DNA of 64,000 nucleotides from a bacterium (GCA_021799485.1 JAJZAK010000009.1:2850-66849), one strand, 5' to 3'. Positions 24,640 through 43,826 are shown, numbered from the stretch's first letter. Made by a program: numbers and translations. Notes: generated by a model not told the origin, from the sequence alone.

Positions 24640-25196
24640 TCCTCGCCTCGGCTTCTCCGCAGCGGAGAGTCCTTCTTCGAAAGCTCGGCATCCCGTTCCG
24701 GATCATCCCAAGCGGGGTGGCGGAAAACATGCGCGAGAGAAGCCCCCGGCGGCTTGTCGTCGCGCTGGCGCGCAAGAAGGCGGTCGCGATAGCCAGGAAA
24801 CGGCCGGGAGCCTTGGTGCTTGGCGCCGACACGATCGTTTGGCGGGCGGGGCGCATCATCGTCAAGCCGAAAAACGGGGCGGATTCCTTGCGGATCTTGA
24901 GATTTCTAAACGGCCGCAAGCACTGGGTCTACACCGGCGCGGCTCTCGCTTGGGATGGAGGCCGCCGCGTCTTGTCGGGCGCCGCGGCCTCGGCGGTCTA
25001 CGCGCGGCGGCTCTCGCGGGATGAATTGGCTCGCCTGGCCGGCAAGCATGGGGACAAGGCGGGCGGATACGCCGTTCAAGATCAAAAAGACCCCTTCATC
25101 TCGCGGGTCTCCGGGGACCGGGACAACGTGATCGGCCTCCCTTTGAAGCTCGTGCGGGCGTTGATGCGGCGTTACGCGACGGGCAGCAAAAAGTAG
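24615..25196 (+). CDS. maf: Maf-like nucleoside triphosphate pyrophosphatase
   Basis: LILASASPQRRVLL, GADTIV, GGYAVQD motifs; ORF 24414 trimmed. Confidence 0.85.
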   Translation: MDRPKHPLILASASPQRRVLLRKLGIPFRIIPSGVAENMRERSPRRLVVALARKKAVAIARKRPGALVLGADTIVWRAGRIIVKPKNGADSLRILRFLNGRKHWVYTGAALAWDGGRRVLSGAAASAVYARRLSRDELARLAGKHGDKAGGYAVQDQKDPFISRVSGDRDNVIGLPLKLVRALMRRYATGSKK

Positions 25197-26590
25197 AAGC
25201 AGGCGCCGCGAGGCTCGGCCTCCGTGACGCCGATCGTCCCGCCGTGCTTTTCGACCACCTTCTGGCAGAGCGCGAGGCCCAGCCCGACGTTTCCCACGTG
25301 GCGCTTGACCTCCTTCTGGTAGAATTTTCGGAAAACGTCGGCGCGAGCCTCCTCGGGGATTCCGGGGCCGGTGTCCGATATCGATGCCCGAAGGCTTCCG
25401 TTTTCGCGGCATAGCGCCAGGCGGATGGTCCCGCTTTCCGGGGTGTGCTCGACGGCGTTATGGAGGAGGTTGTCGAGGACCCGCCGCAAAAGCGTCGGAT
25501 CGCCGGAGACGCGATAGGCGCCGCCGTCGGAGATTTCCAGCTCAAGCTTCTGGCCTCGACGGCGGGTGACGAGGCCGAAGTCCTTCGCGCAGCTCCGCGC
25601 CATTTCGGCGAAGTCCACTTTCTCGCGCTGGGAGAGGTCCCCCAGCTCCGAAAGCTTCGCGAGTTGGAGGATATCCTCGACCATCCGCAAGAGCCTCGCG
25701 CTTGACTGCTCCATGAGCTCGAAGGTGCGGGGCCGGGGGCTCTGGCCGTCGCGGCGCCGCTCGATGCCCGCGGGGACGACGTGGTTGGCGTCCCATTGCT
25801 CCTTCAAAAGGTCCACTCCCGAGCGAAGGACGGTAAGCGGGGTCTTGAGGTCGTGAACCAGCATCGCCGAGAGCTCCTCTTTTTCGGCCTCGAGGCTCAT
25901 GATGCGGATTTTGTCCTCCTTGAGCTCGGACCCCATGCGGTTGACGGCGCGCTCGAGCCGGGAGAGCTCGTCGGCGCCGCCGCGCTCCAAGAAGGGCGTG
26001 AACGTCAGAGGGTCGTCGGCGATTCTCTCGATGTGCGGAATGACGAGCCGCAGCCGCAGGCCGAATTCCTCGCCTAAAAACCAGGCGAGGAGAACGATGG
26101 AGAGAACGGCCGCCGTCCCGAACTCGATGGCGTAATGGGAGCTTTCCACGAACGCGGATTCCAGACCCTGGGTGCGCAGGCTCACGAGCGCCGCGCCCTT
26201 GCCCAGGCTTCCCAGGGATATGGGGACTTGAATATCGTAGATGCCGTCGCGGACGGCCGAGAGGGGGACGCCGGGGTGCGGTTTCCGGCGCGCAAGAGCC
26301 TTCGAGTCGGCCCGGAACGCGATCGTCCGCCCCCGGCTGTTCTTGACCGCGATCGCCGCGACGCCCGCTTGACGGACGAGCCCCGCGAACTCCAAGGAAA
26401 GGTCCCGGGCGCGGCCGCGGCGCGCCTCGGCCTCGACGAAGGTCGCGACCGTTCTGGCCGTCAGGTCCGCGGAGCGCTGAGCCTGGAGGAGGGCTTGGCG
26501 CCGGAACGTTCCGAAAAGATGGCCGAGGAGGCCCGCGGCTACGATCAGGAGGATCGCGAACCAGAGGATGTAGCGCAAGGACAGCCGCAT
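25172..26590 (-). CDS. Sensor histidine kinase (2 TM, periplasmic sensor, HAMP-like linker, HisKA + HATPase_c)
   Basis: H-box MLVHDLKTPLTVL, N/G boxes (LLHNAVEHT, DTGPGIPEE, GNVGLGLALC); ORF 25172..27400 trimmed to MRLSLRYILWF TM start because upstream part is antisense to a real + strand gene. Confidence 0.8.
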   Translation of the reverse strand: MRLSLRYILWFAILLIVAAGLLGHLFGTFRRQALLQAQRSADLTARTVATFVEAEARRGRARDLSLEFAGLVRQAGVAAIAVKNSRGRTIAFRADSKALARRKPHPGVPLSAVRDGIYDIQVPISLGSLGKGAALVSLRTQGLESAFVESSHYAIEFGTAAVLSIVLLAWFLGEEFGLRLRLVIPHIERIADDPLTFTPFLERGGADELSRLERAVNRMGSELKEDKIRIMSLEAEKEELSAMLVHDLKTPLTVLRSGVDLLKEQWDANHVVPAGIERRRDGQSPRPRTFELMEQSSARLLRMVEDILQLAKLSELGDLSQREKVDFAEMARSCAKDFGLVTRRRGQKLELEISDGGAYRVSGDPTLLRRVLDNLLHNAVEHTPESGTIRLALCRENGSLRASISDTGPGIPEEARADVFRKFYQKEVKRHVGNVGLGLALCQKVVEKHGGTIGVTEAEPRGACFYFLLPVA

Positions 26591-26623
26591 GGCGTTTAGA
26601 CATAATAGTATACTCGAAAAACC

Positions 26624-27361
26624 ATGGCCGATCTCCGCGGGAAAACGGCCCTCGTCACTGGGGCGGCGAGGCGCGTCGGCCGCGCGATCGCCGAAGCCTT
26701 GGCGCGGCGGGGGATGAACCTGGCGCTCCATTTCAATCGCTCCCGCCGCGAGGCCGCGTCCTTGGCGGCGCAGCTGAGGCGATCCGGCGGAGTCCGGGTG
26801 GAGGCCTTCCAGGCGGACTTGCGAGATGTTCCCGAAACCAAGCGCATGGTCGCCCGCGCGGCGCGGGAGATGGGCGGGCTGTGGGCCCTCGTCAACAACG
26901 CCTCGCTGTATGTCAAAACCCCTTTCAAAACGGCGACCCTCAAGGATTGGGACGATCATATGGACACCAACGTGAGGGCTCCTTTTTTCCTGGCCCAGGC
27001 GGCCGCGCCTCATCTGCGCCGCGCCGGCGGCAAAATCGTCAACATCGTCGACTGGTCGGCTTTGAGGCCTTACGCGAGCTTCATGCCGTACTGCGTCTCG
27101 AAGGCGGCCCTGCTCTGCCTCAACGCGGCGCTCGCCAAGGAACTCGCGCCCCAGGTGGCGGTCAACGCCGTCTTGCCGGGTCCGGTGCTGCTTCCCGAGT
27201 CCATGACCGCCGGCCAGAGGCGGGCCGTCCAGGCGGCGACCCTGCTCAAGCGCGTGGGAGGCCCCGAGGAAGTCGCGAAGGCGGTCGTTTTTTTTCTCGA
27301 TTCGGCCGAGTTTTCGACGGGAGCCGCATTGACGGTCGACGGGGGGAGGCTCATTGCCTAA
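26624..27361 (+). CDS. Short-chain dehydrogenase/reductase, pteridine reductase (FolM/PTR1/sepiapterin-reductase-like)
   Basis: TGAARRVGRAIA Rossmann motif, YCVSKAAL catalytic Y-x3-K; 8-nt overlap with downstream PTPS/QueD gene. Confidence 0.65.
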   Translation: MADLRGKTALVTGAARRVGRAIAEALARRGMNLALHFNRSRREAASLAAQLRRSGGVRVEAFQADLRDVPETKRMVARAAREMGGLWALVNNASLYVKTPFKTATLKDWDDHMDTNVRAPFFLAQAAAPHLRRAGGKIVNIVDWSALRPYASFMPYCVSKAALLCLNAALAKELAPQVAVNAVLPGPVLLPESMTAGQRRAVQAATLLKRVGGPEEVAKAVVFFLDSAEFSTGAALTVDGGRLIA

Positions 27362-27776
27362 TCCAAAGCTTGGAGCGCCGTTTCGCGCGACGCGACGCAT
27401 CCATTTCTGCTACGGGCACAGGCTCCTCGGATACGCCGGCAAATGCCGTTTTCCGCACGGCCACAACGGCCTTGTCGAGGTCACTGTCGGCCGGGACCGC
27501 CTCGACCGGCTCGGGATGGTCATGGACTTCGAGGAGATTAAATCGAAGGTTCAGGGATGGGTGGACGAGGCCTTGGACCATAAAATGCTGCTCAACGAGA
27601 AGGACCCTCTGGTCGCGATCCTGAGGAAAATGGGAGAGCCGGTCGTCACGATGAAGGGCAACCCCACGGCGGAAAATATCGCTCGGCTCATCTTCGACCA
27701 AGCCCGTCTCCGCAAGCTTCCCGTGCTGTGCGTGCGTCTCTGGGAAACGCCTAACTCCTACGCCGAAGTCGTATAA
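27354..27776 (+). CDS. 6-pyruvoyl-tetrahydropterin synthase family protein (QueD/PTPS)
   Basis: C-x3-HGH motif (CRFPHGH), HGHNG..., 140 aa. Confidence 0.85.
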   Translation: MPNPKLGAPFRATRRIHFCYGHRLLGYAGKCRFPHGHNGLVEVTVGRDRLDRLGMVMDFEEIKSKVQGWVDEALDHKMLLNEKDPLVAILRKMGEPVVTMKGNPTAENIARLIFDQARLRKLPVLCVRLWETPNSYAEVV

Positions 27777-27786
27777 AGCCTGGCCC

Positions 27787-28803
27787 CTAACTCCGTTCTT
27801 TAAAGTAAGACTCAAAGAGCCTTAGAAGCTCGTCTTTTTGGGCGAGGGCGGCTTGAAGCTTCTCCTTTTCTTCGGCCCAGGGGGCGAAACTCGCGGCCGA
27901 CTCTTCTTTTTCCTGCTTGGCCTTGGCCGCCTCCGCCGAGGCTTTCTGGAGATCAACGGTGAGCGCGGCGATGGATCCCTCATCCTTGGCGAGCCTGGAG
28001 GCAGCCTCGTCCCGGGCTTTGCGGGCCTCCTCCAGTTCCCGCCGGGCCGCCTCCAAATCTGACCGCAGGCGTCCCAGGAGAGCTTTGTCCCGTTCCTCCC
28101 TTTCCCGGCTGATGTCCTCGCGATCGGCGAGCGCCTTTTCGGCGACGGCGGCTCGCTCCTCGAGGGTTTTGCGTCGGACGTCGAGTTCCGCGGCTGACAG
28201 GGAGGATGCGAGGCCCTTTTGCCTCTCGGCGTCGAGGCGGCGCTCGAGCTCGAAGAGGCGCTCGTTTAATGTCTTCTCGAAACCGCGGCGCTGGGACATG
28301 TAGCTTTGGAAGGCTTCCTCCTTCTCGGAAAGGGCCTTCGCGAGTTCCGCGCGCTCCGCATCGAGGGCGGCGATCGCCGCGTCCTTGGCCGAGGGGGGGC
28401 GCATGGCATCGAGCGCCTGCTCCCATTTCTCGCCCAGCTCCGCGAGCTTCGCCAGGATTCGCTCCGCGGGGGGCGACATGGCTTCGATTCTCTCCTCGAT
28501 CCGCTGGAATCGACGCGCGAGATCTTTTTCCTCGGCGAGGCGAGCCTTGGCGTACTCGGCTTGGAGCCGTCCACGTTCATCCTCAAGGGCGCGAAGCCAG
28601 GACGCGCGCTCCCTTTCCAGCGAGCGCAGGAGCGACTCGAGCTTCTCGTCCCATAAGGCCTCGCGCCGCTTGAGGTCGGCGATTCGGGCATGGGCTTCCT
28701 CGTAGAAGCGCTCAAAGCCTCCTTCGATGCGCTGGAAGGCCGCTCGCCAGCGGGCGACCTCATCGGGCGCGAGATGGGGCGACGCGTCTTCGGGCGGCAT
28801 CAT
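27787..28803 (-). CDS. Coiled-coil protein, unknown function (E/R/A/L-rich heptads)
   Basis: 338 aa, nearly entirely predicted coiled coil; ATGA start/stop overlap with upstream PorV-like gene. Confidence 0.55.
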   Translation of the reverse strand: MMPPEDASPHLAPDEVARWRAAFQRIEGGFERFYEEAHARIADLKRREALWDEKLESLLRSLERERASWLRALEDERGRLQAEYAKARLAEEKDLARRFQRIEERIEAMSPPAERILAKLAELGEKWEQALDAMRPPSAKDAAIAALDAERAELAKALSEKEEAFQSYMSQRRGFEKTLNERLFELERRLDAERQKGLASSLSAAELDVRRKTLEERAAVAEKALADREDISREREERDKALLGRLRSDLEAARRELEEARKARDEAASRLAKDEGSIAALTVDLQKASAEAAKAKQEKEESAASFAPWAEEKEKLQAALAQKDELLRLFESYFKERS

Positions 28804-29804
28804 GGCATGGAGAAGGTTTGAGACGGTTTCTTGGGAAGGTTAAAGGTCAAGCTCACGAAGCTTTCCGTACCCAGAACCCCCATCGGCACGAAGGCGTAAT
28901 CGATCGAGAAGCCCTTGAACTTGATCCCGAGGCCGGCGCTGACGGCCGACAGAACCCCCAAGCTCGATAGGGTCTCGGTGTTAAATCCCGCCCGGACCGC
29001 CCCCGAGATGTCGCGGTCGAAGTCGGCGGTGTATTCGGTCCCCACGGCGGCGAAGGCGGGGCTGTAGTTCGGCAAGGTCACGTCGCAAGAGACGAGAAGA
29101 GGCCTCCAGGGCCGCGCCGCGCCGCCCATCTTCGCTTGGAAGGGAAGGGGCTCTTGGGTTTGGACGAATTTGGGGCCGGAGCCGATGTTCTGCGCGGACA
29201 CGGCGAGGGTATAGGGGAACAGCCCGCGTTCGAAGCGCGCCATGGCCCCGATGTCGGCGCCGTAGCCGGTGGCCGTCATAAGATAATCCGAGTGGATGTA
29301 GCGGAGGGTGGCGCCTAGGTCGACGGACATGTCTCCGGAGGACATGTCGTAGATGTCCGATCCCCAGCCGAACTCGGCCACGAGGTTGTTGGGATTAAAG
29401 GTGCCGAGAGAGTTGTTGTTGACGTCCGTCTCCTGGACCGAGCCCAGGTTTTGATAGCGGAGGCCTCCGGCCAGGACGTCGAAGTCGCTGACCCGTTGGG
29501 CGTAGTTGGCCGCCTGGTAGTTGATGCCCGCGACCTGGCTTCCGTACATGAAGCTGCCGGAGGCGCGGGGAATGAGGGCCAATCCAGCGGGATTCCAAAA
29601 AATCGAATTCGAGTCGTCGGTGACCGCCGTCATGGCGCCGCCCATGGCGATGCCTCGCGCTCCGACGCCCATGAGAAGAAAATCGTCGGATGTCGTTCCG
29701 ACGCTTTGGGCATTGAAAAGGCCCGCTACGGCCGGGGGGCCCGGAGCGAGGAGGGCCAGAAGACAAAGCGAGAGAATCCGCGGGGATAAGGAGCCTAAAG
29801 TCAT
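28800..29804 (-). CDS. PorV/PorP(SprF)-like FadL-type outer-membrane beta-barrel
   Basis: Signal peptide, then ...LLMGVGARGIAMGGAMTAVTDDSNSIFWNPAGLA motif characteristic of PorV/PorP/FadL-like barrels; C-terminal ...LTFNL aromatic/hydrophobic barrel end; ATGA overlap with upstream giant CTD gene. Confidence 0.55.
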   Translation of the reverse strand: MTLGSLSPRILSLCLLALLAPGPPAVAGLFNAQSVGTTSDDFLLMGVGARGIAMGGAMTAVTDDSNSIFWNPAGLALIPRASGSFMYGSQVAGINYQAANYAQRVSDFDVLAGGLRYQNLGSVQETDVNNNSLGTFNPNNLVAEFGWGSDIYDMSSGDMSVDLGATLRYIHSDYLMTATGYGADIGAMARFERGLFPYTLAVSAQNIGSGPKFVQTQEPLPFQAKMGGAARPWRPLLVSCDVTLPNYSPAFAAVGTEYTADFDRDISGAVRAGFNTETLSSLGVLSAVSAGLGIKFKGFSIDYAFVPMGVLGTESFVSLTFNLPKKPSQTFSMP

Positions 29805-32800
29805 CGCAGGATCACGATCTTGTGGATTTGCGAGCCTCCGTTCGACTGGATGACGGCGAGGTAAAGCCCGCTCGCGACCGGTTGCCCGGAGGCGTTGCTG
29901 CCGTTCCAAAGGTAGGTGCCCGTCGCGCCTACGCTAACATCCAAGACCCGGAGGCCGCGCGTGGTGAAGATCCTCAGCCGCGACCCGGAGGGCAGGTTGG
30001 CGAAGGTCATGTCGAGGGAGCGCGAGGGATAAAAGGGGTTCGGGTAGATCTCGACCGGGCCCAGAGTCGAGGCGGGCTGGATTTGCGTCACTTCGTAGGT
30101 CGCGAGCTGGTCGATGGTGGCCGTGACGAGGTTCGTGGCGGAGTCGAAGGTGGTCGGAACGGGGTGGCATTGCTTCCCGACGGGGTCGTAGCGCATGACG
30201 GAGTATTCGCTGGTGGGTTGAGGAAGCTCCGCCGAGGTGTAGGACATGACGAGTTGGAGGGATCCCGTCGGTTGGATGTTCGCTCCGGGGTAGACGGTGC
30301 TGAGAGCGACGGCGATGCCGGTGCCCAGGCTGCCGCAGGGCAGGGGGGAGGGGGCCGCCGCGAGGACCTCGATCGAGGAATAAGAGGTGGCGAATGATCC
30401 CGCGGGTATCGTCAGTTGGACGAGTTCGCCGTCTCCAAGAGACCCCGTGACGTTGTTTATCGTCGTCGGATAGACGATGCCGCAAATCTCGCCCGGGGGC
30501 GCGGAGCAGGAGGCGGAGGCGGTCGCGGTGATCACGGCGGGGGATGCCGCCGACGGCCCGTCGCCCGAGAGATTGTACGCCGCGACGATGATGGCATTGG
30601 GGCTTCCGGGAACGGCGTTGGTCTGAACGTAGCTGGGCGCGCCGCTCACCGCGACCGTCGCGATCCAGAGGCCCGTCGAGGAGTCGTAAACGTCGTAGCC
30701 GTCGACGGGGTAGCCGGGCAGCTGCGACACGGGGTTCCATGTCCACTGGATCGCCGTCGCCGTCAAGGTCGAGCCCATGATATTGGTCGGGGCGGCCGCC
30801 GGCTTGAGAGGCCCTGCCTGCACGATGTAGCCGTTCGAGAACTGGGCGTTGGCTCCCACGCGCAATTGATACCAGCCCAAGGGCAGTGTGTCGGAGAGAG
30901 GAGGAGGATAGGCGGCGCCCATGACCGCCGTCAGGGAGCTGTTGATCAAATTCCAGGGCGTAATGGCGGCCGGTCCGTAATACAATTCGGTCGATAGGTC
31001 GACCGTGAAGCCTCCTCCTCCTTGCGGCCCCCCGCCGGATCCGGCCAGGGCCTGCAGGCTTAGTCGCGGGCCGTAAAAAAACGAGTTCGATCCGGCGCCG
31101 CCGCCGCTGGAGCCTTCGGTCATTCCTTGGAAATTCGATCCGGTCAGCGTGAATGAGTTTCCCGGGTAGAACGACGAGGCGTTCGAGCCCGTGACGGCGG
31201 GCTGGCGAATGCTTGGCGGGGCGCCGGCGGTGAGGGCGTCAGGGAAGGATGTGAAGTAACCGGACTCGATGGAATTGAGGTAGTTCGAGCCGCCGCCCGA
31301 TCCTCCGATGACGTAAAGGTAGCCGTTGGGAGCGAGGACGGTCGTATGTCCGATCCGTCCTTGTTTGATTTCGAAAGTGTAGGTGCTCCATGATTGAGTG
31401 TAGGGATCGAAGAATTCGTCGGCGTCGGGATTGGCGATAATGCCGGACCCCTGGGCTCCGCCGATGACCCAGACTTCGCCGTCGGGAAGGGCGACGGCGT
31501 TATGTCCAAAGCGCGGCGTCTGGAGCGGGCCTGTGGCGCTCCACTGCGATCCGGACGGCATATTAGGATTGAAAATGTAGGAGGAGCTCGTTTCGCCGCC
31601 GCCGTTGTCGCCTCCGGTGACGAGGACGCGTCCATCGGGCAGAAGGGTGGCCTGATGGTTGTAGAGCGCGGCCGGCATGGGGTCGACGCTCACCCATCCT
31701 GATCCGGGGGTGTAAATGGCGGCGTTTTTGACCGGGCCCCCGGCATTGATGCCTCCGCAGGCGAGAACGGCGCCGTCGCGCAGCAGCGTCATCGCGAGAT
31801 TGGACGCGCTATAGGGAAGGCTGGCGGTGGCGGACCATAGACCGGTCGTGGAAGCGTAAACCTCGGCCGAGCTGAGGTAGGAGCCGCCCAATTGGTTGCC
31901 TCCGGCGACCAAGACGGTTCCATCCGGCAAAAGAAGCATGCCGTGGTTTTGGCGCGCGTTTTGCATGCTGCCCGTCATGGCCCAGGCGCCCAGGGCCGAA
32001 AAATAGATTTCCGCCGTCGCCGTGGTCTGGGTCGATCCGCCGACGTCCGTCTGGCCGCCGGCCACCAGCACATTGCCGTTGACCAGGAGCGTCGCCGTAT
32101 GAAGGGCGCGCGGGTAGCTCATCGAGCCCGTCGCGGTGACGGAGTTGCCGTTCGGGTTGAGAATTTCAGCCGAATTCAGGAACCCGGACACATTTTCGCC
32201 GCCTGCCGTCAGAATGGTTCCGCTCGAAAGCAAGGTGCTCGTATGGTTCGCCCGGGCCGTCTGGAGGGAAGCGCTCCCCGTCGCGAAGCTGCGATAATAA
32301 AGGAGAGTCCGCAGGTTCTGATTGGCGGGACTGCAGGGAGCGATCGTGGGAACGGCGGCGGAGCAGGTCAGGCCTCCTGTCGCCAAGATCGAGTCGTTGG
32401 GGCGAAGCACGGCGGCGTGGCCGTAGGATTCGATGCTGCCGTAGTTTGGATGGTTGGCGAACGTCCAGGTGTTGGCCGCGGGGGAATATTGCTCCTCGTC
32501 TCCGAAGATCATGGAGTTGATGACGATCGTCGCGATGGCGACCGAGTAGTTCTTTCCGGTTAAATCAATATAGGCGGACACGGCCCCGCCCACATTATTC
32601 GGGTCTGTCCCGACCGGGGTCGTGGAGACATAGACGGTTCCACAACCGCTGGCGCCGCAAGCCATGGTGTCGCTCATCGCGCTGAGGGAGATGTTGTTGA
32701 GGGTGATCTGGCCGCAGTTCCCCGAGCTGCCGCACGTGACCCTCACGCCCGCGAGGCAGACGGCGGCGCCTTGAAGGTTGGAGCAGCTCGTCCCTTGCCC

Positions 32801-34078
32801 GCCGTCCGAGCCCGGAGGATTCGTTCCCTGGAAACCGAAAACGACGGTCCCGCTCGCGAAGGAGACGTTCGCGGAGGAGAAAAGAATATAGCCGTCCTTG
32901 ATCATGCCCGTCGCCTGCACGCCCAAGGACACGCTTAATTGGGAGAAGTTCAGGTTGTAGCTTTGTATTGGCGCCGAGGCGTTCGGGGCCAACGAGAAGT
33001 TGCTGCATGCGCTGGGCATGGCGCACGGGGAGTTGAAGGTCACGGTGGAGCCGGTCTGCAGGGAGCCGGAGGCCGCGACATAGGTGGTCGTGATCGTGCC
33101 GAGCCCGCCAAAAAGGTAGACGCCGCCGTCCGCCTGCAGCGTGGCCGTGTGAAGGGCCTTGTACTCCTCCATGGGTTGGCCCAGCGTGACGCTGCCGGAG
33201 GTCGGGTCATAGATTTCCGTTCCAGCGAGATAGCCGCCGGGGCCGGGGCCGGTGGTCGAGTCGCCCGGATTGGCGATGCCGCCGGCGATGAGGACCTGGT
33301 TGTCGCCCATCAAGGTCGCCGTGTGATAGGCCCGATGGACGGAGAGGGGGGTGGAGGCGCTGAAGGCGTTGGCCGACGGATCGTAAAGTTCGGTCGAGAG
33401 AAGAAATCCGTCGGTCGAGTTGTAGCCGCCCGCAATGAAGACGCGGCCGTCGGAGAGAAGCGTCGCGGTGTGGCCCGTGCGTTGGGTGGTCATTGTGATC
33501 AGAGAAGTATTGAACGCCCCGGGCGCTCCACTAAAGGAGCAATTGGGATCGTTGGCCGGAAGGGGAAGCGAGGCCGAGGGGGTAAACATCTCGCAGCTTT
33601 GATGAAAGGTCGGCGTGTTGTCCTGCCCGCCGCAGACGAGGACGGAGCCATTAGACAGAAGGGTCGCCGTGTGGTCGTAGCGGGCTTTCGTCAGGGGGAT
33701 CGTCGTTCCATACATGCAGTGATAGACGGGATTGTAGACCTCGGCGGTATTGCTGACTCCCGTAGGCGAACAACTGTTGCCGCTGCAATAGACGCCGCCC
33801 ACCAGCAAGACGTCGCCGTTCGGCAGCAACGTGGCCGTATGCGAAGCCCGCGCGACGGACATGGTCGCCGAAAGTGTCGTGGCGCTTCCGTTGTTGGCGT
33901 TGATCAACACGATTTGATTGGAGAGTCCGCTCGTCGTTGAATAACCGCCCGTCAGGAGGATGTTGTCGTCCGGAAGAAGCGTCGCGGTTTGGTCGGCGAG
34001 GGTTTGGGCCGCCGCCGAAATCGCAAAAAATGCGGAGGAGAAGGCGGCGCAGGCAAGGACGGCCTTTGTCACGCGCAT
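29801..34078 (-). CDS. Giant secreted protein: ~13 Kelch-like blades (two beta-propellers) + Ig/FN3-like region + C-terminal T9SS/FlgD-Ig-like sorting domain
   Basis: Signal peptide; recurring HTATLLxxGxVLVxGG blades; C-terminus IYPNPFYPSRSLDMTF...LWNGSNASGQPVASGLYLAVIQSNGGSQIHKIVILR matches Por-secretion/FlgD-Ig CTD consensus. Confidence 0.8.
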   Translation of the reverse strand: MRVTKAVLACAAFSSAFFAISAAAQTLADQTATLLPDDNILLTGGYSTTSGLSNQIVLINANNGSATTLSATMSVARASHTATLLPNGDVLLVGGVYCSGNSCSPTGVSNTAEVYNPVYHCMYGTTIPLTKARYDHTATLLSNGSVLVCGGQDNTPTFHQSCEMFTPSASLPLPANDPNCSFSGAPGAFNTSLITMTTQRTGHTATLLSDGRVFIAGGYNSTDGFLLSTELYDPSANAFSASTPLSVHRAYHTATLMGDNQVLIAGGIANPGDSTTGPGPGGYLAGTEIYDPTSGSVTLGQPMEEYKALHTATLQADGGVYLFGGLGTITTTYVAASGSLQTGSTVTFNSPCAMPSACSNFSLAPNASAPIQSYNLNFSQLSVSLGVQATGMIKDGYILFSSANVSFASGTVVFGFQGTNPPGSDGGQGTSCSNLQGAAVCLAGVRVTCGSSGNCGQITLNNISLSAMSDTMACGASGCGTVYVSTTPVGTDPNNVGGAVSAYIDLTGKNYSVAIATIVINSMIFGDEEQYSPAANTWTFANHPNYGSIESYGHAAVLRPNDSILATGGLTCSAAVPTIAPCSPANQNLRTLLYYRSFATGSASLQTARANHTSTLLSSGTILTAGGENVSGFLNSAEILNPNGNSVTATGSMSYPRALHTATLLVNGNVLVAGGQTDVGGSTQTTATAEIYFSALGAWAMTGSMQNARQNHGMLLLPDGTVLVAGGNQLGGSYLSSAEVYASTTGLWSATASLPYSASNLAMTLLRDGAVLACGGINAGGPVKNAAIYTPGSGWVSVDPMPAALYNHQATLLPDGRVLVTGGDNGGGETSSSYIFNPNMPSGSQWSATGPLQTPRFGHNAVALPDGEVWVIGGAQGSGIIANPDADEFFDPYTQSWSTYTFEIKQGRIGHTTVLAPNGYLYVIGGSGGGSNYLNSIESGYFTSFPDALTAGAPPSIRQPAVTGSNASSFYPGNSFTLTGSNFQGMTEGSSGGGAGSNSFFYGPRLSLQALAGSGGGPQGGGGFTVDLSTELYYGPAAITPWNLINSSLTAVMGAAYPPPLSDTLPLGWYQLRVGANAQFSNGYIVQAGPLKPAAAPTNIMGSTLTATAIQWTWNPVSQLPGYPVDGYDVYDSSTGLWIATVAVSGAPSYVQTNAVPGSPNAIIVAAYNLSGDGPSAASPAVITATASASCSAPPGEICGIVYPTTINNVTGSLGDGELVQLTIPAGSFATSYSSIEVLAAAPSPLPCGSLGTGIAVALSTVYPGANIQPTGSLQLVMSYTSAELPQPTSEYSVMRYDPVGKQCHPVPTTFDSATNLVTATIDQLATYEVTQIQPASTLGPVEIYPNPFYPSRSLDMTFANLPSGSRLRIFTTRGLRVLDVSVGATGTYLWNGSNASGQPVASGLYLAVIQSNGGSQIHKIVILR

Positions 34079-34189: not shown

Positions 34190-34555
34190 CTATTCGGCGC
34201 TTTCTTGGAGGTTCTTCGGAAGATCCTCGATCTTGGCGGCGAGGATGAAATCGTTTTCCGACAGGCCCCCGATGGCATGGGTCCAAAGCTCGACGGCAAG
34301 CCGGCGGTATTCCGTCAGGTGGATGTCCGGATGATGGCCCTCCGCCTCGGCGACGTCCTTGATCCGGACGATGAGGTCGACGGCGCTCGTAAAATCCTTC
34401 ATGAGCAGATTGCGGCGAATGCGCCTGCCGTCACCCGAGATCCGCCATGCCGGCAGGGCCGCGAGGTATTCCCGGGCGCGCGCGACGTTGAGAGGCGGCG
34501 CGCCTCCGGAGCAGGGCTTGCACCGGCCGAAGCGAAGAGCTTCAACGAGAGTCAT
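34190..34555 (-). CDS. Pterin-4a-carbinolamine dehydratase (PCD/PhhB)
   Basis: ...EGHHPDIHLTEYRRLAVELWTHAIGGLSENDFILAAKIE conserved PCD core; ORF 34190..34798 trimmed (N-terminal extension is low-complexity). Confidence 0.8.
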   Translation of the reverse strand: MTLVEALRFGRCKPCSGGAPPLNVARAREYLAALPAWRISGDGRRIRRNLLMKDFTSAVDLIVRIKDVAEAEGHHPDIHLTEYRRLAVELWTHAIGGLSENDFILAAKIEDLPKNLQESAE

Positions 34556-36498: not shown

Positions 36499-37312
36499 GC
36501 GGCCGGTCCCGGCCCGTCCCGGGGCCGTGGAAGTCGGAGCCGCCGGTCGAGAGGAGGTTGAACCCAGCCGCGACGCCAGCCCAGTGCTTCCGCTCCTCTT
36601 CCGAAAAGGCCGCGTAGTAGGATTCGATGCCTTCCAGACCTGCCCGGACCCATTCGGGAAGATGCTTGAGAGCCGTTTTGGCCGTCTTGGGATGAGCCAG
36701 GCTCGCGAATCCCCCGGCGTCGCGGATAAGAGCGATCGCTTCCTCGGGGGTCGGGCCCAAGGGCTCCGCGAATCCGGGACGGCCCCGAGACAGGTATTTC
36801 TCGAAGGCCTCCGAACGCGTGCGCACGATCCCCTTGCGCCGCATCAGGTCGGCCACGTGCGGCCTTCCGAGGGGGGAGTCGGGAGAGGAAGGAAGTTCCT
36901 CGGGAGAAAGCGGGAGGCCCAGCTCGCGCAGTCGGCGCATGATGGCGTCGACGCGGTCCCGGCGCCGGCTGCGGAAACGCGACAGGGCCGCGAGAAAGGA
37001 GGGATCCTGGGCGCGAATTCCGTAGCCAAGGAAGTGGACCTGGCCTTCGGGATAGTTGGAGTTGATCTCGATGCCGAGGGAAAAATGAATTTTCGCCGCC
37101 GTCGCCGCGGCCGCGGCCTCCTCAAGGCCCGCGACCGTATCGTGATCCGTGAGAATCAGGAGGTCGAGCTTCGAGGCTTCGGCGCGCTTGACGACTTTCT
37201 GGGGGGGGAGGGTCCCGTCCGAGTGACGGGAATGAGTGTGGCAGTCGAAGCGCTTCAATCGAGCTTTTCCTAGACCGTGACGACCTCCTTGATTTCCGGG
37301 ACGGCCTCGCAC
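36434..37312 (-). CDS. PHP-domain phosphoesterase (TrpH/YciV-like)
   Basis: FDCHTHSRHSDG, ILTDHDT motifs; alternative TTG start at 37258 (GGAAAAG upstream) would end 43-nt overlap with nfu. Confidence 0.75.
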   Translation of the reverse strand: MRGRPGNQGGRHGLGKARLKRFDCHTHSRHSDGTLPPQKVVKRAEASKLDLLILTDHDTVAGLEEAAAAATAAKIHFSLGIEINSNYPEGQVHFLGYGIRAQDPSFLAALSRFRSRRRDRVDAIMRRLRELGLPLSPEELPSSPDSPLGRPHVADLMRRKGIVRTRSEAFEKYLSRGRPGFAEPLGPTPEEAIALIRDAGGFASLAHPKTAKTALKHLPEWVRAGLEGIESYYAAFSEEERKHWAGVAAGFNLLSTGGSDFHGPGTGRDRPLGVEIPESVFDRFSDRLARCG

Positions 37313-37545
37313 ATGGCGCGCTCGACGCCGCCTTTGAGGGTCGCCATGGAGCTCGGGCAGGAGCCGCAGGCGCCGTGGAGCGCGACCTCGGCAGTCCCGG
37401 TTTCCTCGCGAATCGCGACAAGGGTGATGTCGCCGCCATCGGATTGGATATAGGGCCGGATCCGGGCGAGGACCGATTCCACGCGGTCCTTGAGAGAGGC
37501 GGGGGCGGACTGGCTGGGCTGGACGGGGTTCGTCGGGTCTTCCAT
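37270..37545 (-). CDS. NifU-like (Nfu) Fe-S cluster carrier domain protein
   Basis: ...VALHGACGSCPSS... CxxC of Nfu C-terminal domain; AAGGAG SD 7 nt upstream of chosen ATG. Confidence 0.8.
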   Translation of the reverse strand: MEDPTNPVQPSQSAPASLKDRVESVLARIRPYIQSDGGDITLVAIREETGTAEVALHGACGSCPSSMATLKGGVERAMCEAVPEIKEVVTV

Positions 37546-37555
37546 GGCGGGCTCC

Positions 37556-38026
37556 TTATCGCATCGGCAAGGGCCGGCCGGGCGGCATAAATTCAACGCG
37601 CGCGGTCGCGGGCTCCCCGCGGATCAAGTCTTCGAGCGTGGTGCTCGAGAAAAATTCGGTGAGGAGGGCGCCCAGGCGCCGCCAAAGGGGGGACAGCGAG
37701 CACCCGGACTGGTGGTGGCATTCGCGCGGGGCGTCGGCGTATTTCGAGCAGACGTCCTCGAAAATCGAGCCATCGAGGGCGATCACGATGCGGTTCAAAG
37801 TGATCTCATGGGGCGGCCTTGCGAGGACGTATCCCCCGCTGGAGCCGCGGCGGCTCGAGATCACGCCCGCGCTTTTAAGCTTCCAAAGGATCTGATTCGT
37901 GTAGTCGAGGGGGATGTTCTCCTCGCGCGCGAGCTTCTCGGCCGAGAGGGGGGCGTCCCCGTCCGCCTTCGCGATCGCGGCCATGAGCCGCATGCCATAT
38001 TCCAGCGAGCTCGTGATCCTCATCAA
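37556..38026 (-). CDS. Rrf2 family transcriptional regulator (IscR/SufR-like)
   Basis: N-terminal wHTH (YGMRLMAAIAK...PLSAEKLAREENIP), C-terminal Cys cluster (C...CHHQSGC) for Fe-S sensing. Confidence 0.8.
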   Translation of the reverse strand: MMRITSSLEYGMRLMAAIAKADGDAPLSAEKLAREENIPLDYTNQILWKLKSAGVISSRRGSSGGYVLARPPHEITLNRIVIALDGSIFEDVCSKYADAPRECHHQSGCSLSPLWRRLGALLTEFFSSTTLEDLIRGEPATARVEFMPPGRPLPMR

Positions 38027-38343
38027 TAGATTCCCAGCTGGTCCTTGGCCTCCTCCGAGGCCATTGTTTTTGGATCCCAGAGAGGGTCGAAGGTGAGGTC
38101 CACGTCCACGTCCTTGACGCCGGGGAGTTTCGCCACGGCTTGATGGATCGAGGCGAGCAGCATCGGGCCGTAGGGGCAGGCGGGCGAGGTAAGGCTCATC
38201 ACCACCTTGACGGCGTCGCCGCCTTCCGCCGCTCCCGATTTAACCTCCGCTCCGTAGACGAGCCCCAGGTCCACGACGCTGATGTGGATCTCCGGGTCCG
38301 CGACCGGCTTTAACGCTTCTCCGATTTCCTTAAAAGTCGGCAT
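38023..38343 (-). CDS. sufT: DUF59 / SufT-like Fe-S assembly protein
   Basis: ...ISVVDLGLVYG...VVMSLTSPACPYGPML... typical MIP18/DUF59; AAGGA SD. Confidence 0.75.
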   Translation of the reverse strand: MPTFKEIGEALKPVADPEIHISVVDLGLVYGAEVKSGAAEGGDAVKVVMSLTSPACPYGPMLLASIHQAVAKLPGVKDVDVDLTFDPLWDPKTMASEEAKDQLGIY

Positions 38344-38345
38344 GT

Positions 38346-38843
38346 CTATTTTTCCTTGAATTCCGTCGAGGCCGCGCCGTCGGAGGGCGCTTTGAGGCCC
38401 TCGAGGAGCGTATTCCAGGCGAGGGTCGCGCATTTGACCCGCATCGGGTACTTGCGCACCCCTTCGAAGGCCCGCGCCTCGCCCAGGCGCTCGGGAAGGG
38501 CTTCCGGCGGGGTTTCCCGCAGCATCATGGACTTGAAGGCTCTGGCAAGCTCGCGGGCCTCGGCGACGCTCAGGCCTTCCATGGCTTCGGCCATCATGGC
38601 CGAGGAGGCCTGGCTGATCACGCAGCCGTGGCCCGAGTAGCGGAGCCGGGCCAGGCGTCGGCCCTCCTGGACGCCGTCCTTCGTCAAGGACGCCGAGATC
38701 TCGATTTCGTCTCCGCACACGGGATTGACGCCGTGGGAGTGGATGTCCGCTTCCGCGATCGCTCCCTTGTGGGCCGCGCTCTTGAAATAGTCCAGGAGCA
38801 CGTCCCGGTAGAGGTCCTGGAGCTCCGAGTCGCCTTCGGCCAT
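38346..38843 (-). CDS. sufU: SufU-type Fe-S scaffold / sulfur acceptor (NifU N-terminal family)
   Basis: VCGDEIEIS, GHGCVISQASSAMMAE, KCATLAWNTL motifs. Confidence 0.8.
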   Translation of the reverse strand: MAEGDSELQDLYRDVLLDYFKSAAHKGAIAEADIHSHGVNPVCGDEIEISASLTKDGVQEGRRLARLRYSGHGCVISQASSAMMAEAMEGLSVAEARELARAFKSMMLRETPPEALPERLGEARAFEGVRKYPMRVKCATLAWNTLLEGLKAPSDGAASTEFKEK

Positions 38844-38851
38844 GGGAAGTC

Positions 38852-40093
38852 TTAGGCGATCGCCTCCTCCTTTTTGAAGAATCGCGCGGCCTTGGAGACG
38901 GCCGCGGCCAGGAGGTCGATCTCCTCCAGGGTGTTGTAGAGATAAAAGCTCGCGCGCACGGTGCCTGGGATCTTGAGCTTGGCCATCAGGGGCTGGCAGC
39001 AATGATGTCCGGCGCGCACGGCGATGCCCTCCAGGTCGATGGCCGTGCTCGCGTCGTGAGGGTGGAGCCCCGCGATGTTAAAGGAGACGAGGCAGGCCTG
39101 GCGGTCGAGGTCCTTCGGGCCGTACATCTCGACCTCGGGCATCGAACCCAGGACGGAAAGCGCCCGGCCGAGCAAGGCCCGCTCGTGACGCTCGATCTCA
39201 TCGAAGCCAACGCCCCGGAGGTAGTCGATCGCGGCGTCGAAGGCGGCGGCGTCGGCGATGTTCGGAGTGCCGGCTTCGAATTTATAGGGCAGGACGTTAT
39301 AGGTCGAATGATCGAGAAAGACCTGCCTGATCATGTCGCCGCCGCCGAGAAAAGGATCCATCGCCTCGAGGATATCCTCCTTGCCGTAGAGGACGCCGAT
39401 CCCCGTCGGCCCCAGCATCTTGTGGGCCGAGAAGGCGAGGAAGTCGCAGCTCCAGGCCCGGACGTCGATGGGGCGGTGCGGAGCCCACTGGGCGGCGTCG
39501 ATCAGGGTTTTCGCGCCGATCGAGCGCGCCATCGCGAGGATCTTATCGATGGGGCTGACCGATCCCAGGGCGTTCGAGAGGGCGGAAAAGGCGATGAGCT
39601 TGATCCTCGGGGAGAGCATCTGCCGCGCCGAGTCGACGTCCAGCGTGCCGTCGTGGGCGAGCGGGATGAAGCGCAGCTTCACGCCTTTCTCCCGGGCGAT
39701 CATCTGCCAGGGGACCAGATTGGAGTGGTGCTCGATCTCCGTCAGGAGGATCTCGTCGCCTTCCTTAAGGAATTTGCGGCCCCAAGCGTGGGCGACGAGG
39801 TTGATCGACTCGGTCGTGTTCCGCGTGAAGATGACGCAGTGGGCATGGCGCGCGCCGATGAGGGAGGCGACTTTGGCGCGAGTCGTCTCCACAAGGTTCG
39901 TCGCCTCCTCGGAGAGCTCGTGGACGCCGCGGTGAACGTTGGCGTTGTGGCGCTCATAGAAGGAGACCAGCGACTCGATCACGGCGCGGGGCTTCTGCGT
40001 CGTGGCGGCGTTGTCCAGGTAGACGAGGGGCTTGCCCCTCACGCGGCGCGAGAGGATGGGGAAATCCTTGCGAATTTTAGCGGGATCAATCAT
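38852..40093 (-). CDS. sufS: Cysteine desulfurase SufS (group II)
   Basis: PLP-lysine SAHKMLGPTGIG, RAGHHCCQPL active-site loop; ORF trimmed to MIDPAKIRKDFPIL. Confidence 0.9.
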   Translation of the reverse strand: MIDPAKIRKDFPILSRRVRGKPLVYLDNAATTQKPRAVIESLVSFYERHNANVHRGVHELSEEATNLVETTRAKVASLIGARHAHCVIFTRNTTESINLVAHAWGRKFLKEGDEILLTEIEHHSNLVPWQMIAREKGVKLRFIPLAHDGTLDVDSARQMLSPRIKLIAFSALSNALGSVSPIDKILAMARSIGAKTLIDAAQWAPHRPIDVRAWSCDFLAFSAHKMLGPTGIGVLYGKEDILEAMDPFLGGGDMIRQVFLDHSTYNVLPYKFEAGTPNIADAAAFDAAIDYLRGVGFDEIERHERALLGRALSVLGSMPEVEMYGPKDLDRQACLVSFNIAGLHPHDASTAIDLEGIAVRAGHHCCQPLMAKLKIPGTVRASFYLYNTLEEIDLLAAAVSKAARFFKKEEAIA

Positions 40094-40400
40094 GGCTTGT
40101 CTCGATGAGCACGTCGTCTCCCTCCACCTTGACGGGGAAGGTCCTGATGGGCGCGATGGCGGGCATGCGCGTGGCCTCGCCCGTGCGGATGTCGAAGCGG
40201 GCCCCGTGGCGGGGGCATTCAACCTCGAAATCCTCGAGGGGGCCGTTGTCGAGGGAGCCTTCGTCGTGGGAGCAGACGTCCTCGACGGCGTAGAGCTTGC
40301 CCGCGGCGTTGAAAAGGATCACCCGCGTCTCCCCAACTAGGACGATCGCGCGCCCGCCGGGCGGGATGCCGGAGAGCTTGGCGGCCTTGACGAGCGTCAT
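40086..40400 (-). CDS. Rieske [2Fe-2S] domain protein embedded in suf operon
   Basis: CSHDEGSL ... CPRHGARF Rieske boxes; 104 aa. Confidence 0.8.
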   Translation of the reverse strand: MTLVKAAKLSGIPPGGRAIVLVGETRVILFNAAGKLYAVEDVCSHDEGSLDNGPLEDFEVECPRHGARFDIRTGEATRMPAIAPIRTFPVKVEGDDVLIETSHD

Positions 40401-41653
40401 GAGAGGGCTTGCTCCCGCAACTTTTGCGCGATGCGATCCTCGAGCCGGCTCGCGAGTTCCGGAGAATGGATCTGGCCGAGGAGAGGCGAGAAAAAACCCA
40501 TGACCAGGGTTTCCTGCGCTTCCTCGGGCGAGAGGCCGCGGCTTTCGACATAGAAGAGGTCCTCGGGATCCGGAGCCCCCGCCGTCGCCCCATGCTTGCA
40601 GCGGACGGAGTCGGTGAGGATCTCGAGAAGAGGCGTCGTGTCCGCGCGCGCCGAGTCGGAAAGAAGGAGATTATGGTTTTCCTGGTAGGCGTCCGAATCG
40701 GAAGCCGTCTTCTCGATGCGGACGAGCCCCGTGTAGACGGCGCGGGCGCGGTCCTTGAGCGCGGCGTTAAAAAGGAGGCGGCTCTGCGTCTTGGGAGCGT
40801 CGTGGACCTGGCGCGAATGGAAGTCGAATTTCTGAGTCCCTGATCCCATGAGCGCTCCCCACAGAGAGGCTCCGGCGCCGGTTCCGCGCAGGCGGACCTC
40901 CAGGTCGCTTTTGTGGAGGGCGCCGCCAAGGATCAGCGAAGCGTGCGCCAGAGTGGCGGAAGACTCAATTTCGGCTGTCTGCCGCCAGAACGTCCGCGAG
41001 GCCATGGGCAGATCCTGGAGATAGAAATGCTTGACGCTCGCTCCGGCGCCCAGGAAAAGCCTTGAGAAGGAAAGGACGGCGGGCGCCTGGGACGCCGACG
41101 GCCCGTTGGAGGAAGCTCCGACATGCTCCTCAATGACAATCGCGCGGCTTTCCGGGGCCGCGAAGATCGAGAATCGCGGAAAGGCGAAGCCGTCTGAGGC
41201 CCGCGCCGTGACCCGCACCACCGTCTCGGAATCGGCGGCCGGAGGGATGAAGACCATTAGGTCCTTGGCCGCTAGCGCCCGGCTGAGGAATTCGATCTTC
41301 GCGTAGGAGCCGACCGGATCGGCTTCGAGGACGCGCCGCGCCTGCGCCGCGAATCGAGAATCGCGCAGGGCATCCTCCAGGGAAAGGACGACGGCCTCCG
41401 GCGGCGCGACGATGGAGAGTTCGCCTCCGTCCAGTTCCGGGCGGCCTCCTCGGTCCTTGAGCCGGTCGAGCCCGAGGGAGGCGTAGTCCGTTCGGCGCCA
41501 CTCCGGGGCGCTCGGGAGCGGCGGCTCCGCCGAAAGATAGGCGTTCCAGGCATCCTCTCTCGATGGAATCGCGGCGGACGGATGGCGCTTGGGGGACGGT
41601 TGGCCGTTGACCGTCGCGGGATCGCTCACGCCGCGGCTGGAGAGAAGGCTCAT
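40397..41653 (-). CDS. sufD: Fe-S cluster assembly protein SufD
   Basis: SufBD-fold C-terminal region; ATGA overlap with sufB stop; long ORF 40397..42358 trimmed because its upstream part is antisense to sufB. Confidence 0.85.
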   Translation of the reverse strand: MSLLSSRGVSDPATVNGQPSPKRHPSAAIPSREDAWNAYLSAEPPLPSAPEWRRTDYASLGLDRLKDRGGRPELDGGELSIVAPPEAVVLSLEDALRDSRFAAQARRVLEADPVGSYAKIEFLSRALAAKDLMVFIPPAADSETVVRVTARASDGFAFPRFSIFAAPESRAIVIEEHVGASSNGPSASQAPAVLSFSRLFLGAGASVKHFYLQDLPMASRTFWRQTAEIESSATLAHASLILGGALHKSDLEVRLRGTGAGASLWGALMGSGTQKFDFHSRQVHDAPKTQSRLLFNAALKDRARAVYTGLVRIEKTASDSDAYQENHNLLLSDSARADTTPLLEILTDSVRCKHGATAGAPDPEDLFYVESRGLSPEEAQETLVMGFFSPLLGQIHSPELASRLEDRIAQKLREQALS

Positions 41654-43065: not shown

Positions 43066-43826
43066 GAGGCCAGCTCCGAGGCCAGGGCTTTCCCCTCGAG
43101 CCAGGCGTAGCCTTTCTTCTCCAGTTCAAGCGCCATCTCGGGCCCACCGGATTCCACGATGCGGCCGTCCTTGAACACGTGGACGAAGTGGGGCTTCACA
43201 TAATCGAGGATGCGCTGGTAATGGGTGACGAGAAGGATGCCGTTTTCCGGTCCTGCGGTCTTCATGATGCCGGAGGCAACCACGCGCAGGGCGTCGATGT
43301 CCAGGCCCGAGTCCGTCTCGTCGAGGATCGCGAGCCTGGGGTTCAGGCAGGCCATTTGCAGGATCTCAAGCCGCTTTTTCTCGCCGCCCGAAAATCCGTC
43401 GTTGACGTAGCGGGTGGCGAACTTTTCGTCCATATCGAGGAGCGACATCTTCTCGCGCAGGGTCTTGCGGAAGTCTCGGATGCCGGCCTCGGCTCCCTTG
43501 ACGGACTTCATCGCCGTGCGGATGAAATTGGCGACGCTGACCCCGGGAAGCGCCATCGGATATTGGAACCCAAGGAAAATTCCGAGCCGAGCCCGCTCGA
43601 AGGGGGGAAGCCCCGTGACATCCTTGCCTTCGATAAGAATTTTACCGTCCATCAATTCGTAGCGTGGATGTCCCATGACGGCGTACGAGAGAGTGCTTTT
43701 TCCGGAACCATTGGGACCCATGAGGGCGTGGATTTCGCCCTTTTGAATCTTGAGGGAGACGCCCTTTAAGATAGGGCGCCCCTTGACGGCGACTTGTAAG
43801 TTATCGATCTCCAGTAGAGCTGGCAT
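43062..43826 (-). CDS. sufC: Fe-S cluster assembly ATPase SufC
   Basis: Walker [13 protein letters not shown] signature FSGGEKKR, Walker [13 protein letters not shown]; AGAGGAGA SD. Confidence 0.95.

Follow-up and report, generated by a model that had tools for sequence, protein, structure and literature searches.

A stretch of 64,000 nucleotides (nt) from a bacterial assembly (GCA_021799485.1, JAJZAK010000009.1:2850-66849), referred to here as the window, was analyzed, and its minus strand was found to carry three consecutive open reading frames (ORFs) at positions 27787-34078, encoding 1425, 334 and 338 amino acids (aa). They encode a giant secreted Kelch protein with a C-terminal sorting domain (CTD) like those found in type IX secretion systems (T9SS), an outer-membrane barrel of the PorV/PorQ family, and a predicted coiled-coil protein. 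Both junctions between the three genes are 4-nt stop/start overlaps, and public gene calls made independently on identical contigs (L085/L086) reproduced all three genes together with both -4 overlaps. In our best explanation, the three genes are probably transcribed as one unit on an Elusimicrobiota chromosome and belong to a phylum-wide class in which one CTD cargo is combined with one cognate PorV/PorQ-type barrel. The conserved parts of this class, CTD and barrel, are members of known families; what appears to be new is their organization. The features of the locus, with the evidence from translation, hidden Markov models (HMMs) and AlphaFold 2 (AF2) models, were as follows.

29801..34078, minus strand: cargo gene, 1425 aa (translation, Pfam and NCBIfam)
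34007..34078, minus strand: signal peptide of the cargo, residues 1-24 (read from the translation; cut predicted between AAA and QT)
32999..34006, minus strand: Kelch beta-propeller region 1, about residues 25-360 (Pfam Kelch_4, 181 bits)
31199..32491, minus strand: Kelch beta-propeller region 2, about residues 530-960 (Pfam, and internal repeat with region 1)
30551..30793, minus strand: fn3 domain, residues 1096-1176 (Pfam E = 0.002, under the gathering score)
29804..30049, minus strand: CTD, residues 1344-1425, type A-like and nearest to the CTDs that PorZ and PorU retain (HMM and fold)
29801..29804, minus strand: ATGA overlap of the cargo stop (TGA) and the barrel ATG (read in the sequence)
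28800..29804, minus strand: barrel gene of the PorV/PorQ family, 334 aa from the ATG at 29804 (NF033709 and AF2)
28800..28803, minus strand: ATGA overlap of the barrel stop and the start of the coiled-coil gene (read in the sequence)
27787..28803, minus strand: coiled-coil gene, 338 aa (translation), a truncated member of an Elusimicrobia-specific family of about 525 aa
34148..34176, minus strand: promoter-like site TCAACA-17-TAAAAT (consensus scan), between the cargo gene and its upstream neighbor, in a gap of 111 nt

Architecture of the cargo and the barrel

The cargo starts with a Sec signal peptide and continues with two Kelch propeller regions, an fn3 domain and an Ig-like stalk before it ends in the CTD. 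Kelch-repeat beta-propellers were recognized above gathering scores by Kelch_4, Kelch_6 (111 bits), Kelch_1 (88 bits) and other Pfam models. Beta-prop_ATRN-LZTR1 matched over residues 25-222, and the matches in region 2 were Kelch_KLHDC2 (800-935), Kelch_1 (912-938) and Glyoxal_oxid_N (809-877). The window cargo was collinear with orthologues of about 1900 aa but shorter, and the exact protein was found in NCBI, JGI, ENA and Logan. At its N-terminus, the predicted signal-peptidase cut (34001-34009, cargo residues 24-26) would leave an N-terminal glutamine, which is a single case. A "Q-rule", by which a glutamine stands at the N-terminus after the signal-peptidase cut, has reportedly been described for signal peptidase I substrates of Bacteroidetes.

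The CTD was assigned by sequence models and by predicted fold. The type A CTD model TIGR04183 matched cargo residues 1344-1423 of 1425 with 25.7 bits in the whole cargo and 30.7 bits in the CTD alone (cutoff 23), and the PorZ C-terminus model gave 43.8 and 49.4 bits, respectively. The 43.8 bits lay far under the cutoff of 260 for the PorZ equivalog NF052228, of which only profile positions 651-754, the CTD, were matched. Among 40 related CTDs, 38 matched TIGR04183, all 40 the PorZ C-terminus and 21 the PorU C-terminus, and the type B model TIGR04131 found no match in these or in the window cargo. Pfam CHU_C matched in 2 of 32 paralogous cargos. In the AF2 model of the cargo C-terminus, the CTD part reached a predicted local distance difference test (pLDDT) score of 71-91 and formed a compact Ig-like beta-sandwich; this model rests on a shallow alignment, since the homologue search with the C-terminus returned 7 matches. 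The top Foldseek matches of the CTD model were PorZ 5m11 (2e-6) and PorU 6za2 (2e-4), followed later by the CTDs of RgpB (5ag8) and NucA (8glk_D, TMt 0.74, root-mean-square deviation 3.6). By sequence and predicted fold, the CTD thus appeared closest to the uncleaved CTDs of PorZ and PorU, and this likeness suggests that the window CTD is also retained. A separate match to the cargo C-terminus, P0128 (366 aa, JGI), combined a Reg_prop domain (PF07494) with a CTD and is possibly a closer PorZ-like protein; Reg_prop is the propeller type of PorZ itself.

The second gene encodes a barrel which matched the PorV/PorQ family model NF033709 over its full length (2-326 of 326) with 144 bits, against a cutoff of 90 (E = 8e-42). 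The PorQ model scored higher on it than the PorV model (100.4 and 72.7 bits), and all 25 related barrels examined matched the PorV_fam (NF033709), PorQ and PorV models. The sole significant sequence match in the PDB was PorV 6h3i_F. The AF2 model (pLDDT 83.3, predicted template modeling score 0.79) had 14 strands and a plug-like N-terminal segment with short helices at residues 39-77. Its best Foldseek match was PorV 8gl6_F from a CTD-bound T9SS complex (E = 8.6e-14, template modeling score 0.68/0.62). FadL came next at 6e-9, five orders of magnitude weaker, and the predicted fold is therefore the approximately 14-strand fold of the FadL superfamily in the form closest to PorV. FadL/Toluene_X (PF03349) reached 17 bits against a cutoff of 29.7, and PorP/SprF (TIGR03519 / PF11751) gave no match at E <= 0.1 in Pfam and NCBIfam searches with the window barrel or the 25 relatives. 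Translation from the ATG at 29804 gave a normal signal peptide (MTLGSLSPRILSLCLLALLAPGPPAVA, cut before G), and the barrel protein stands in the public record at 334 aa with this start. A TTG at 29909 was discarded as an alternative start, as all it would add is an extension with no signal character, overlapping the cargo CTD.

An earlier note on this DNA, made from the sequence alone, had described a giant Kelch protein, secreted and ending in a T9SS-type CTD, coupled to a dedicated PorV-lineage barrel, and had read both ATGA sites and three minus-strand ORFs at this locus. These claims were borne out. The same note had likened the pair to type B CTD adhesins with a PorP/SprF-like barrel, and here it was corrected: the HMMs gave a signal for neither family, and the PorP/SprF barrel with type B CTD was abandoned as a model. 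It had also named a match to generic FadL transporters only as the outcome that would tell against it; such a transporter was rejected, because the FadL match was under cutoff and the fold match was poorer than that to PorV.

Pairing and conservation of the cassettes

The homologues of the barrel were named Elusimicrobia or Elusimicrobiota, a phylum outside the Fibrobacterota-Chlorobiota-Bacteroidota (FCB) group. A scan of one genome per species yielded 80 loci, which came mostly from Elusimicrobia/Elusimicrobiota, several from sources named only "bacterium", one from Candidatus Lindowbacteria and two from FCB metagenome-assembled genomes (MAGs). The pairing was then surveyed with a custom CTD HMM and a barrel HMM on six-frame ORFs of 84 sequences (83 loci and the window, about 1.3 Mb). 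In this sample, 77 of 78 CTD-ending ORFs adjoined a PorV-like barrel gene on the same strand, and 9 of 86 barrels were unpaired, 5 of them at contig ends. The junction between the upstream ORF and the barrel was a -4 overlap in 47 of the 66 cases measured; the cargo usually lay upstream, and the order was barrel, then cargo in six loci. In NCBI, the relatives already go by the names "T9SS type A sorting domain-containing protein" and "PorV/PorQ family protein".

Several MAGs contained two or more different cargo/barrel pairs, with paralogues 31-58% identical within a genome. The distances of CTDs and barrels were correlated (r = 0.89, Mantel p = 0.001). The passengers of the paralogous cargos varied among fn3 arrays, Ig-like domains and PQQ, NHL or Kelch propellers, with fn3 as the commonest domain, and such variety is expected of display cassettes. 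No full-length PorU or PorZ was present among the 32 paralogous cargos. Since 1:1 pairs with shared CTD and barrel families occur throughout the phylum, the window is considered to hold one member of this cassette class.

Three individual loci of the survey were recorded separately. The lone CTD ORF without a detectable adjoining barrel (L083, 1676-5083, minus strand) lay 60 nt from a paired cargo gene and divergent to it. In Candidatus Lindowbacteria (L061, MFPR01000044.1, 3-7960), a CTD cargo was followed at -4 by a PorV-like barrel and again at -4 by a third gene, whose product had a signal peptide and WD40-like and TPR-like regions. In a complete Elusimicrobiota genome (L041, CP096137.1, 7317-10920), the barrel was split over two frames and the cargo ORF had 875 aa, a sign either that the cassette is decaying or that the long-read assembly contains indel errors.

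The orthologues of the window triad were defined as the 43 loci with a barrel at least 40% identical to the window barrel. All 43 barrels followed a Kelch cargo of 1450-2050 aa homologous to the window cargo, and the cargo and barrel genes shared a 4-nt overlap (ATGA or GTGA) in 37 of them. The coiled-coil gene was present in at least 35 loci, and in 33 its distance to the barrel stop was -4 to +7 nt. The recurrence of overlap and spacing across 43 loci shows that the arrangement is not due to chance. In six loci (L009, L010, L013, L016, L020 and L038) another gene took the place of the coiled-coil gene, beginning about 73-109 nt after the barrel gene and encoding a 220-aa protein with an N-terminal transmembrane (TM) helix, polyproline and HEAT-like repeats; in L026 and L040 the coiled-coil gene was absent. 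The co-occurrence and synteny on which the earlier note had staked its proposal were thus found in relatives, whereas its description of the coiled-coil partner as obligatorily co-translated proved too strong in view of these eight loci. As a separate observation, a gene for a TM, Pro-rich and E-set-like protein lay just upstream of the cargo in L001-L003 (L001 3581-4252), and TonB-like architectures thus recur next to the Kelch cassette, in these three and in the six replacement loci.

In the window and its closest relative, L004, both the cargo and the coiled-coil protein were shortened, and the chromosomal surroundings of the triad were different, from which it follows that its three genes moved as a group. 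Identity between the two was 63% for the cargo (L004 5517-9902), 88% for the barrel and 80% for the coiled-coil protein. To judge from these identities, the cargo evolves much faster than its barrel, as expected if an exposed, fast-evolving passenger sits on a conserved anchor.

The third protein consists to 75% of A/E/K/R/L/Q/D and has a hydrophobic periodicity of 3.5 residues (z = 11.4 vs shuffles), which characterizes it, at the level of sequence, as an amphipathic helical or coiled-coil rod. Neither a signal peptide nor a TM segment was predicted. No relative was found in Pfam, NCBIfam or PDB; the matches to SMC, OmpH and eIF3-type models in Pfam and NCBIfam were dismissed as spurious coiled-coil matches, and the PDB profile search returned an engineered coiled coil only. 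The public name "chromosome segregation ATPase" for 27787-28803 was likewise discarded, as it goes back to a spurious SMC-type match (TIGR02168, 16 bits vs cutoff 567). A word-based homologue search found 6 proteins, and an exhaustive profile search through 1.84 billion representative proteins brought up only 108 relatives, none of them annotated, in agreement with the claim of the earlier note that this partner has no described counterpart. Members of the family usually have 476-547 aa, with a proline-rich N-terminus (PPRPVPPAPPRPE) followed by conserved coiled-coil modules; further motifs are the conserved TPKAKD...LEAEK and the C-terminal W..ER..L..L..KDEM..ML..F. In the versions of the window and L004, about 190 N-terminal residues were lost.

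Proposed anchoring and export routes

By analogy with PorZ-PorQ, the cassette probably functions as a stoichiometric surface-anchoring unit. In this model, cargo and barrel would both be exported via Sec, and the barrel would insert into the outer membrane. The beta-sandwich of the cargo CTD would then dock on its own barrel and remain attached uncleaved, with the two Kelch propellers displayed on the fn3/Ig stalk as a putative binding or adhesion module. The stop/start overlaps may fix the ratios of cargo, barrel and third protein. The last of these would be a soluble coiled-coil rod that occurs with the Kelch cassette only, and would not be an outer-membrane partner. The lack of an export signal makes a cytoplasmic accessory factor its likeliest role, for instance one that handles or positions the giant Sec substrate, and this is the weakest part of the model.

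Several results weigh against this model. Pfam Por_Secre_tail (PF18962) remained under its gathering score on the cargo (14.9 vs 27), the AF2 model of the cargo C-terminal region was moderate overall (pLDDT 66), and the barrel fell short of both equivalog cutoffs (PorV NF033710, 72.7 vs 250; PorQ NF033711, 100.4 vs 220). Because the pairing sample was centered on the barrels, it would miss any CTD protein that stands unpaired elsewhere in the genomes, and the co-divergence of CTDs and barrels could stem from shared duplication history alone. A folded 150-kDa double propeller cannot pass a 14-strand barrel. For a coiled-coil protein that bears no export signal, coupling to an outer-membrane protein lacks an obvious rationale, and 8 of 43 loci dispense with its gene or have another in its place. 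Moreover, what was observed is the family membership and fold matches of barrel and CTD, their 1:1 adjacency, overlaps and co-divergence, and the conservation of the triad; CTD-barrel binding, CTD retention, surface location, the outer-membrane route and the role of the coiled-coil protein are inference.

For the passage of the cargo across the outer membrane, both an unrecognized T9SS with cognate PorV shuttles and a free-standing cassette have to be considered. The former supposes a full T9SS (SprA/Sov translocon, PorKLMN and PorU sortase) in the genome, with the barrel as a cargo-specific PorV paralogue shuttling from the translocon. In its favor, the CTD truly belongs to the T9SS type A CTDs and the barrel to the PorV/PorQ family, their relatives already bear the corresponding NCBI names, and a large folded cargo requires a large translocon. 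This route was nevertheless judged improbable. T9SS genes have been reported only from Bacteroidota and other FCB phyla, and species without T9SS had no CTD proteins (PMC11285876). For the two complete Elusimicrobia genomes in its survey, neither of which is the genome of the window, TXSScan recorded no T9SS and none of the other known secretion systems (PMC4793230 Table S3). No T9SS core gene was found in the 64-kb window or beside the unpaired barrels of L057, L071 and L081, and the absence of full-length PorU and PorZ from the paralogous cargos points in the same direction. The strict 1:1 linkage is also unlike that of Bacteroidota type A proteins, for which one PorV serves many unlinked cargos (PMC5562754). 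In the searchable literature, nothing relevant was found on Elusimicrobia with T9SS or PorV. A tentative reading, possible though on balance doubtful, is that Elusimicrobiota and at least one Lindowbacteria MAG use CTD/PorV-Q cassettes for free-standing display without SprA, PorKLMN or PorU. Each barrel would then capture, and perhaps help to export, only its own cargo; the cassette would be the ancestral module of the T9SS attachment complex (PorQ-PorZ, PorV-PorU) or a minimal derivative of it, and the coiled-coil family would be a new accessory component of the Kelch cassette.

Three further alternatives were weighed against the anchoring model. In one of them, the cassette would be a self-contained export-and-anchor device, in which the barrel, perhaps with the beta-barrel assembly machinery (BAM), translocates its own unfolded cargo and retains the CTD with no need of a T9SS translocon or motor. 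In favor of this, each cargo has strictly one barrel, to which it is translationally coupled and with which it co-diverges, and the cassettes act as evolutionary units with interchangeable passengers. Structures of FadL have a lateral opening in the barrel, a property of FadL/PorV-type barrels that would suit such a role. However, we know of no PorV- or FadL-family barrel that translocates protein, a plug-like segment was predicted in this one, no energy source is evident, and Kelch propellers and fn3 arrays are typical of T9SS-type cargo that folds in the periplasm. Self-export was therefore considered quite unlikely, even in a phylum which lacked every known secretion system in the sole survey covering it (PMC4793230). 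Far less credible is a FadL-like small-molecule channel beside a periplasmic or secreted Kelch enzyme, such as a radical copper oxidase, whose CTD would be an Ig-like domain. It could draw on the weak matches to Toluene_X in the barrel and to GlxA/Glyoxal_oxid_N in the cargo, and on FadL as the second-best fold match, but PorV models and the PorV structure fit far better than the sub-cutoff Toluene_X. Unrelated passengers that have just the CTD in common occur with barrels of this one family, which points to CTD recognition and not to substrate chemistry, and the combination of conserved galactose-oxidase-type copper ligands with loss of pairing in cargos without CTD was not seen. As for the coiled-coil gene, it is unlikely to be an unrelated operon passenger with no functional tie to cargo or barrel. 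Its product has no export signal, it is missing or replaced in the loci named above, and its N-terminal part of about 190 residues was lost in the window lineage, all of which would suit a passenger. Against this, the family occurs only next to Kelch-type cassettes, keeps its tight spacing to the barrel stop in 33 of 43 loci, across barrels only 40-50% identical, and moved with the cassette to the different chromosomal context of the window lineage.

Related systems and genomic setting

In the attachment complex of P. gingivalis, PorZ and PorU retain their CTDs and are held 1:1 by PorQ and PorV (PMC5562754). Type B cargos are anchored non-covalently by adjacent PorP-like barrels (PMC9143113). 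As the cassettes described here combine PorV/PorQ barrels with type A-like CTDs, PorZ-PorQ and PorU-PorV are better analogues than SprB-SprF. In both PorZ-PorQ and PorU-PorV, a type A-like CTD cargo goes with a PorV/PorQ-family barrel; retention and the 1:1 hold have been shown there, and we infer them here. The CTDs of the present cassettes scored best against the C-termini of PorZ and PorU by HMM and fold, the barrels best against PorQ, and the window cargo resembles PorZ in having two beta-propellers followed by a CTD. Homology to PorZ is restricted to the CTD, however: the propellers of the window cargo are Kelch and those of PorZ Reg_prop, and the equivalog cutoffs were not reached. Unlike in PorZ-PorQ and PorU-PorV, the genes are adjacent and overlapping, many paralogous pairs occur per genome, the host lies outside the FCB group, and no PorU sortase was seen among the sampled cargos.

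Complexes of SprA, PorV and CTD (6h3i, 8gl6) are close to the present case in that PorV is the best sequence and structure match of the window barrel, and the PorV-bound CTD in them is a structural precedent for the interaction proposed here. Canonical PorV differs, being a single gene that serves many unlinked cargos together with the 36-strand SprA translocon, whereas the cassettes have one barrel per cargo; SprA is not known from Elusimicrobiota. Type B systems such as SprB-SprF and PG1035-PorP-PorE share the order of a cargo gene and then its own dedicated barrel gene. Both protein families are different, though, as neither TIGR04131 nor a PorP/SprF signal was found here, and unlike in PG1035-PorP-PorE no PorE-like partner was found, its position being taken by the coiled-coil protein. 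FadL/TodX channels belong to the same 14-strand barrel superfamily and gave the second-tier fold match, but their Pfam model stayed under cutoff, PorV fitted about 5 orders better, and the conserved partner here is a protein domain and not a metabolic gene. Type V secretion (autotransporters and two-partner systems) likewise encodes a passenger together with a dedicated barrel. This is a functional analogy only, without homology, since type V barrels are 12- or 16-strand Omp85/AT types, and the comparison is relevant to the speculative self-export reading only.

In the field, CTD proteins and T9SS genes are regarded as co-occurring and confined to FCB (PMC11285876); here, T9SS-type CTDs and PorV/PorQ barrels were abundant in a phylum outside FCB. 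The organization also differs from that of Bacteroidota type A proteins, as the CTD genes each stand beside their own barrel gene, mostly with a 4-nt overlap. No account was found in the searchable literature of CTD/PorV-Q cassettes that occur in multiple copies in a non-FCB phylum, strictly paired and translationally coupled, with CTDs most like the retained type of PorZ/PorU and with a lineage-specific coiled-coil gene as third member. The absence of T9SS from this genome, if true, would make the finding more unusual rather than invalidate it. If the translocon is absent, CTD-barrel recognition can serve as a stand-alone principle of anchoring or export, and the cassette offers a minimal two-gene system for dissecting CTD recognition by the PorV family and for tracing the origin of the attachment complex. 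If it is present, T9SS reaches beyond FCB, and its architecture is one of cognate shuttles. Whichever holds, the several pairs of one genome, which diverge from one another, provide a natural specificity matrix, and the Kelch cassette adds an uncharacterized coiled-coil family.

The triad is bounded on both sides. Upstream, the 111-nt gap that carries the promoter-like site begins after the stop of a Pterin_4a gene; the site itself is weak evidence, because 1 match was found and 1.0 was expected by chance. Downstream, a convergent PTPS gene ends 10 nt from the stop of the coiled-coil gene. Given these two boundaries, the triad was taken as a self-contained three-gene unit.

The flanking genes belong to pterin metabolism, with a pterin-4a-carbinolamine dehydratase gene upstream on the same strand (34190-34555, minus strand) and PTPS and short-chain dehydrogenase (SDR) genes convergent and downstream (26624-27776, plus strand). 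A 742-aa minus-strand ORF at 25172-27400 was rejected as the downstream neighbor, being an over-extended version of a 472-aa histidine kinase gene that crosses the PTPS and SDR genes. The remainder of the window was ordinary chromosome with genes for SecA, Lnt, RF2, GroEL, an RND pump, pyruvate kinase, Suf proteins, ALS and Prc. It included an Fe-S cluster assembly neighborhood at 37270-43895 (minus strand) with an Rrf2 regulator, a NifU-like protein, a class V aminotransferase/cysteine desulfurase and SufB.

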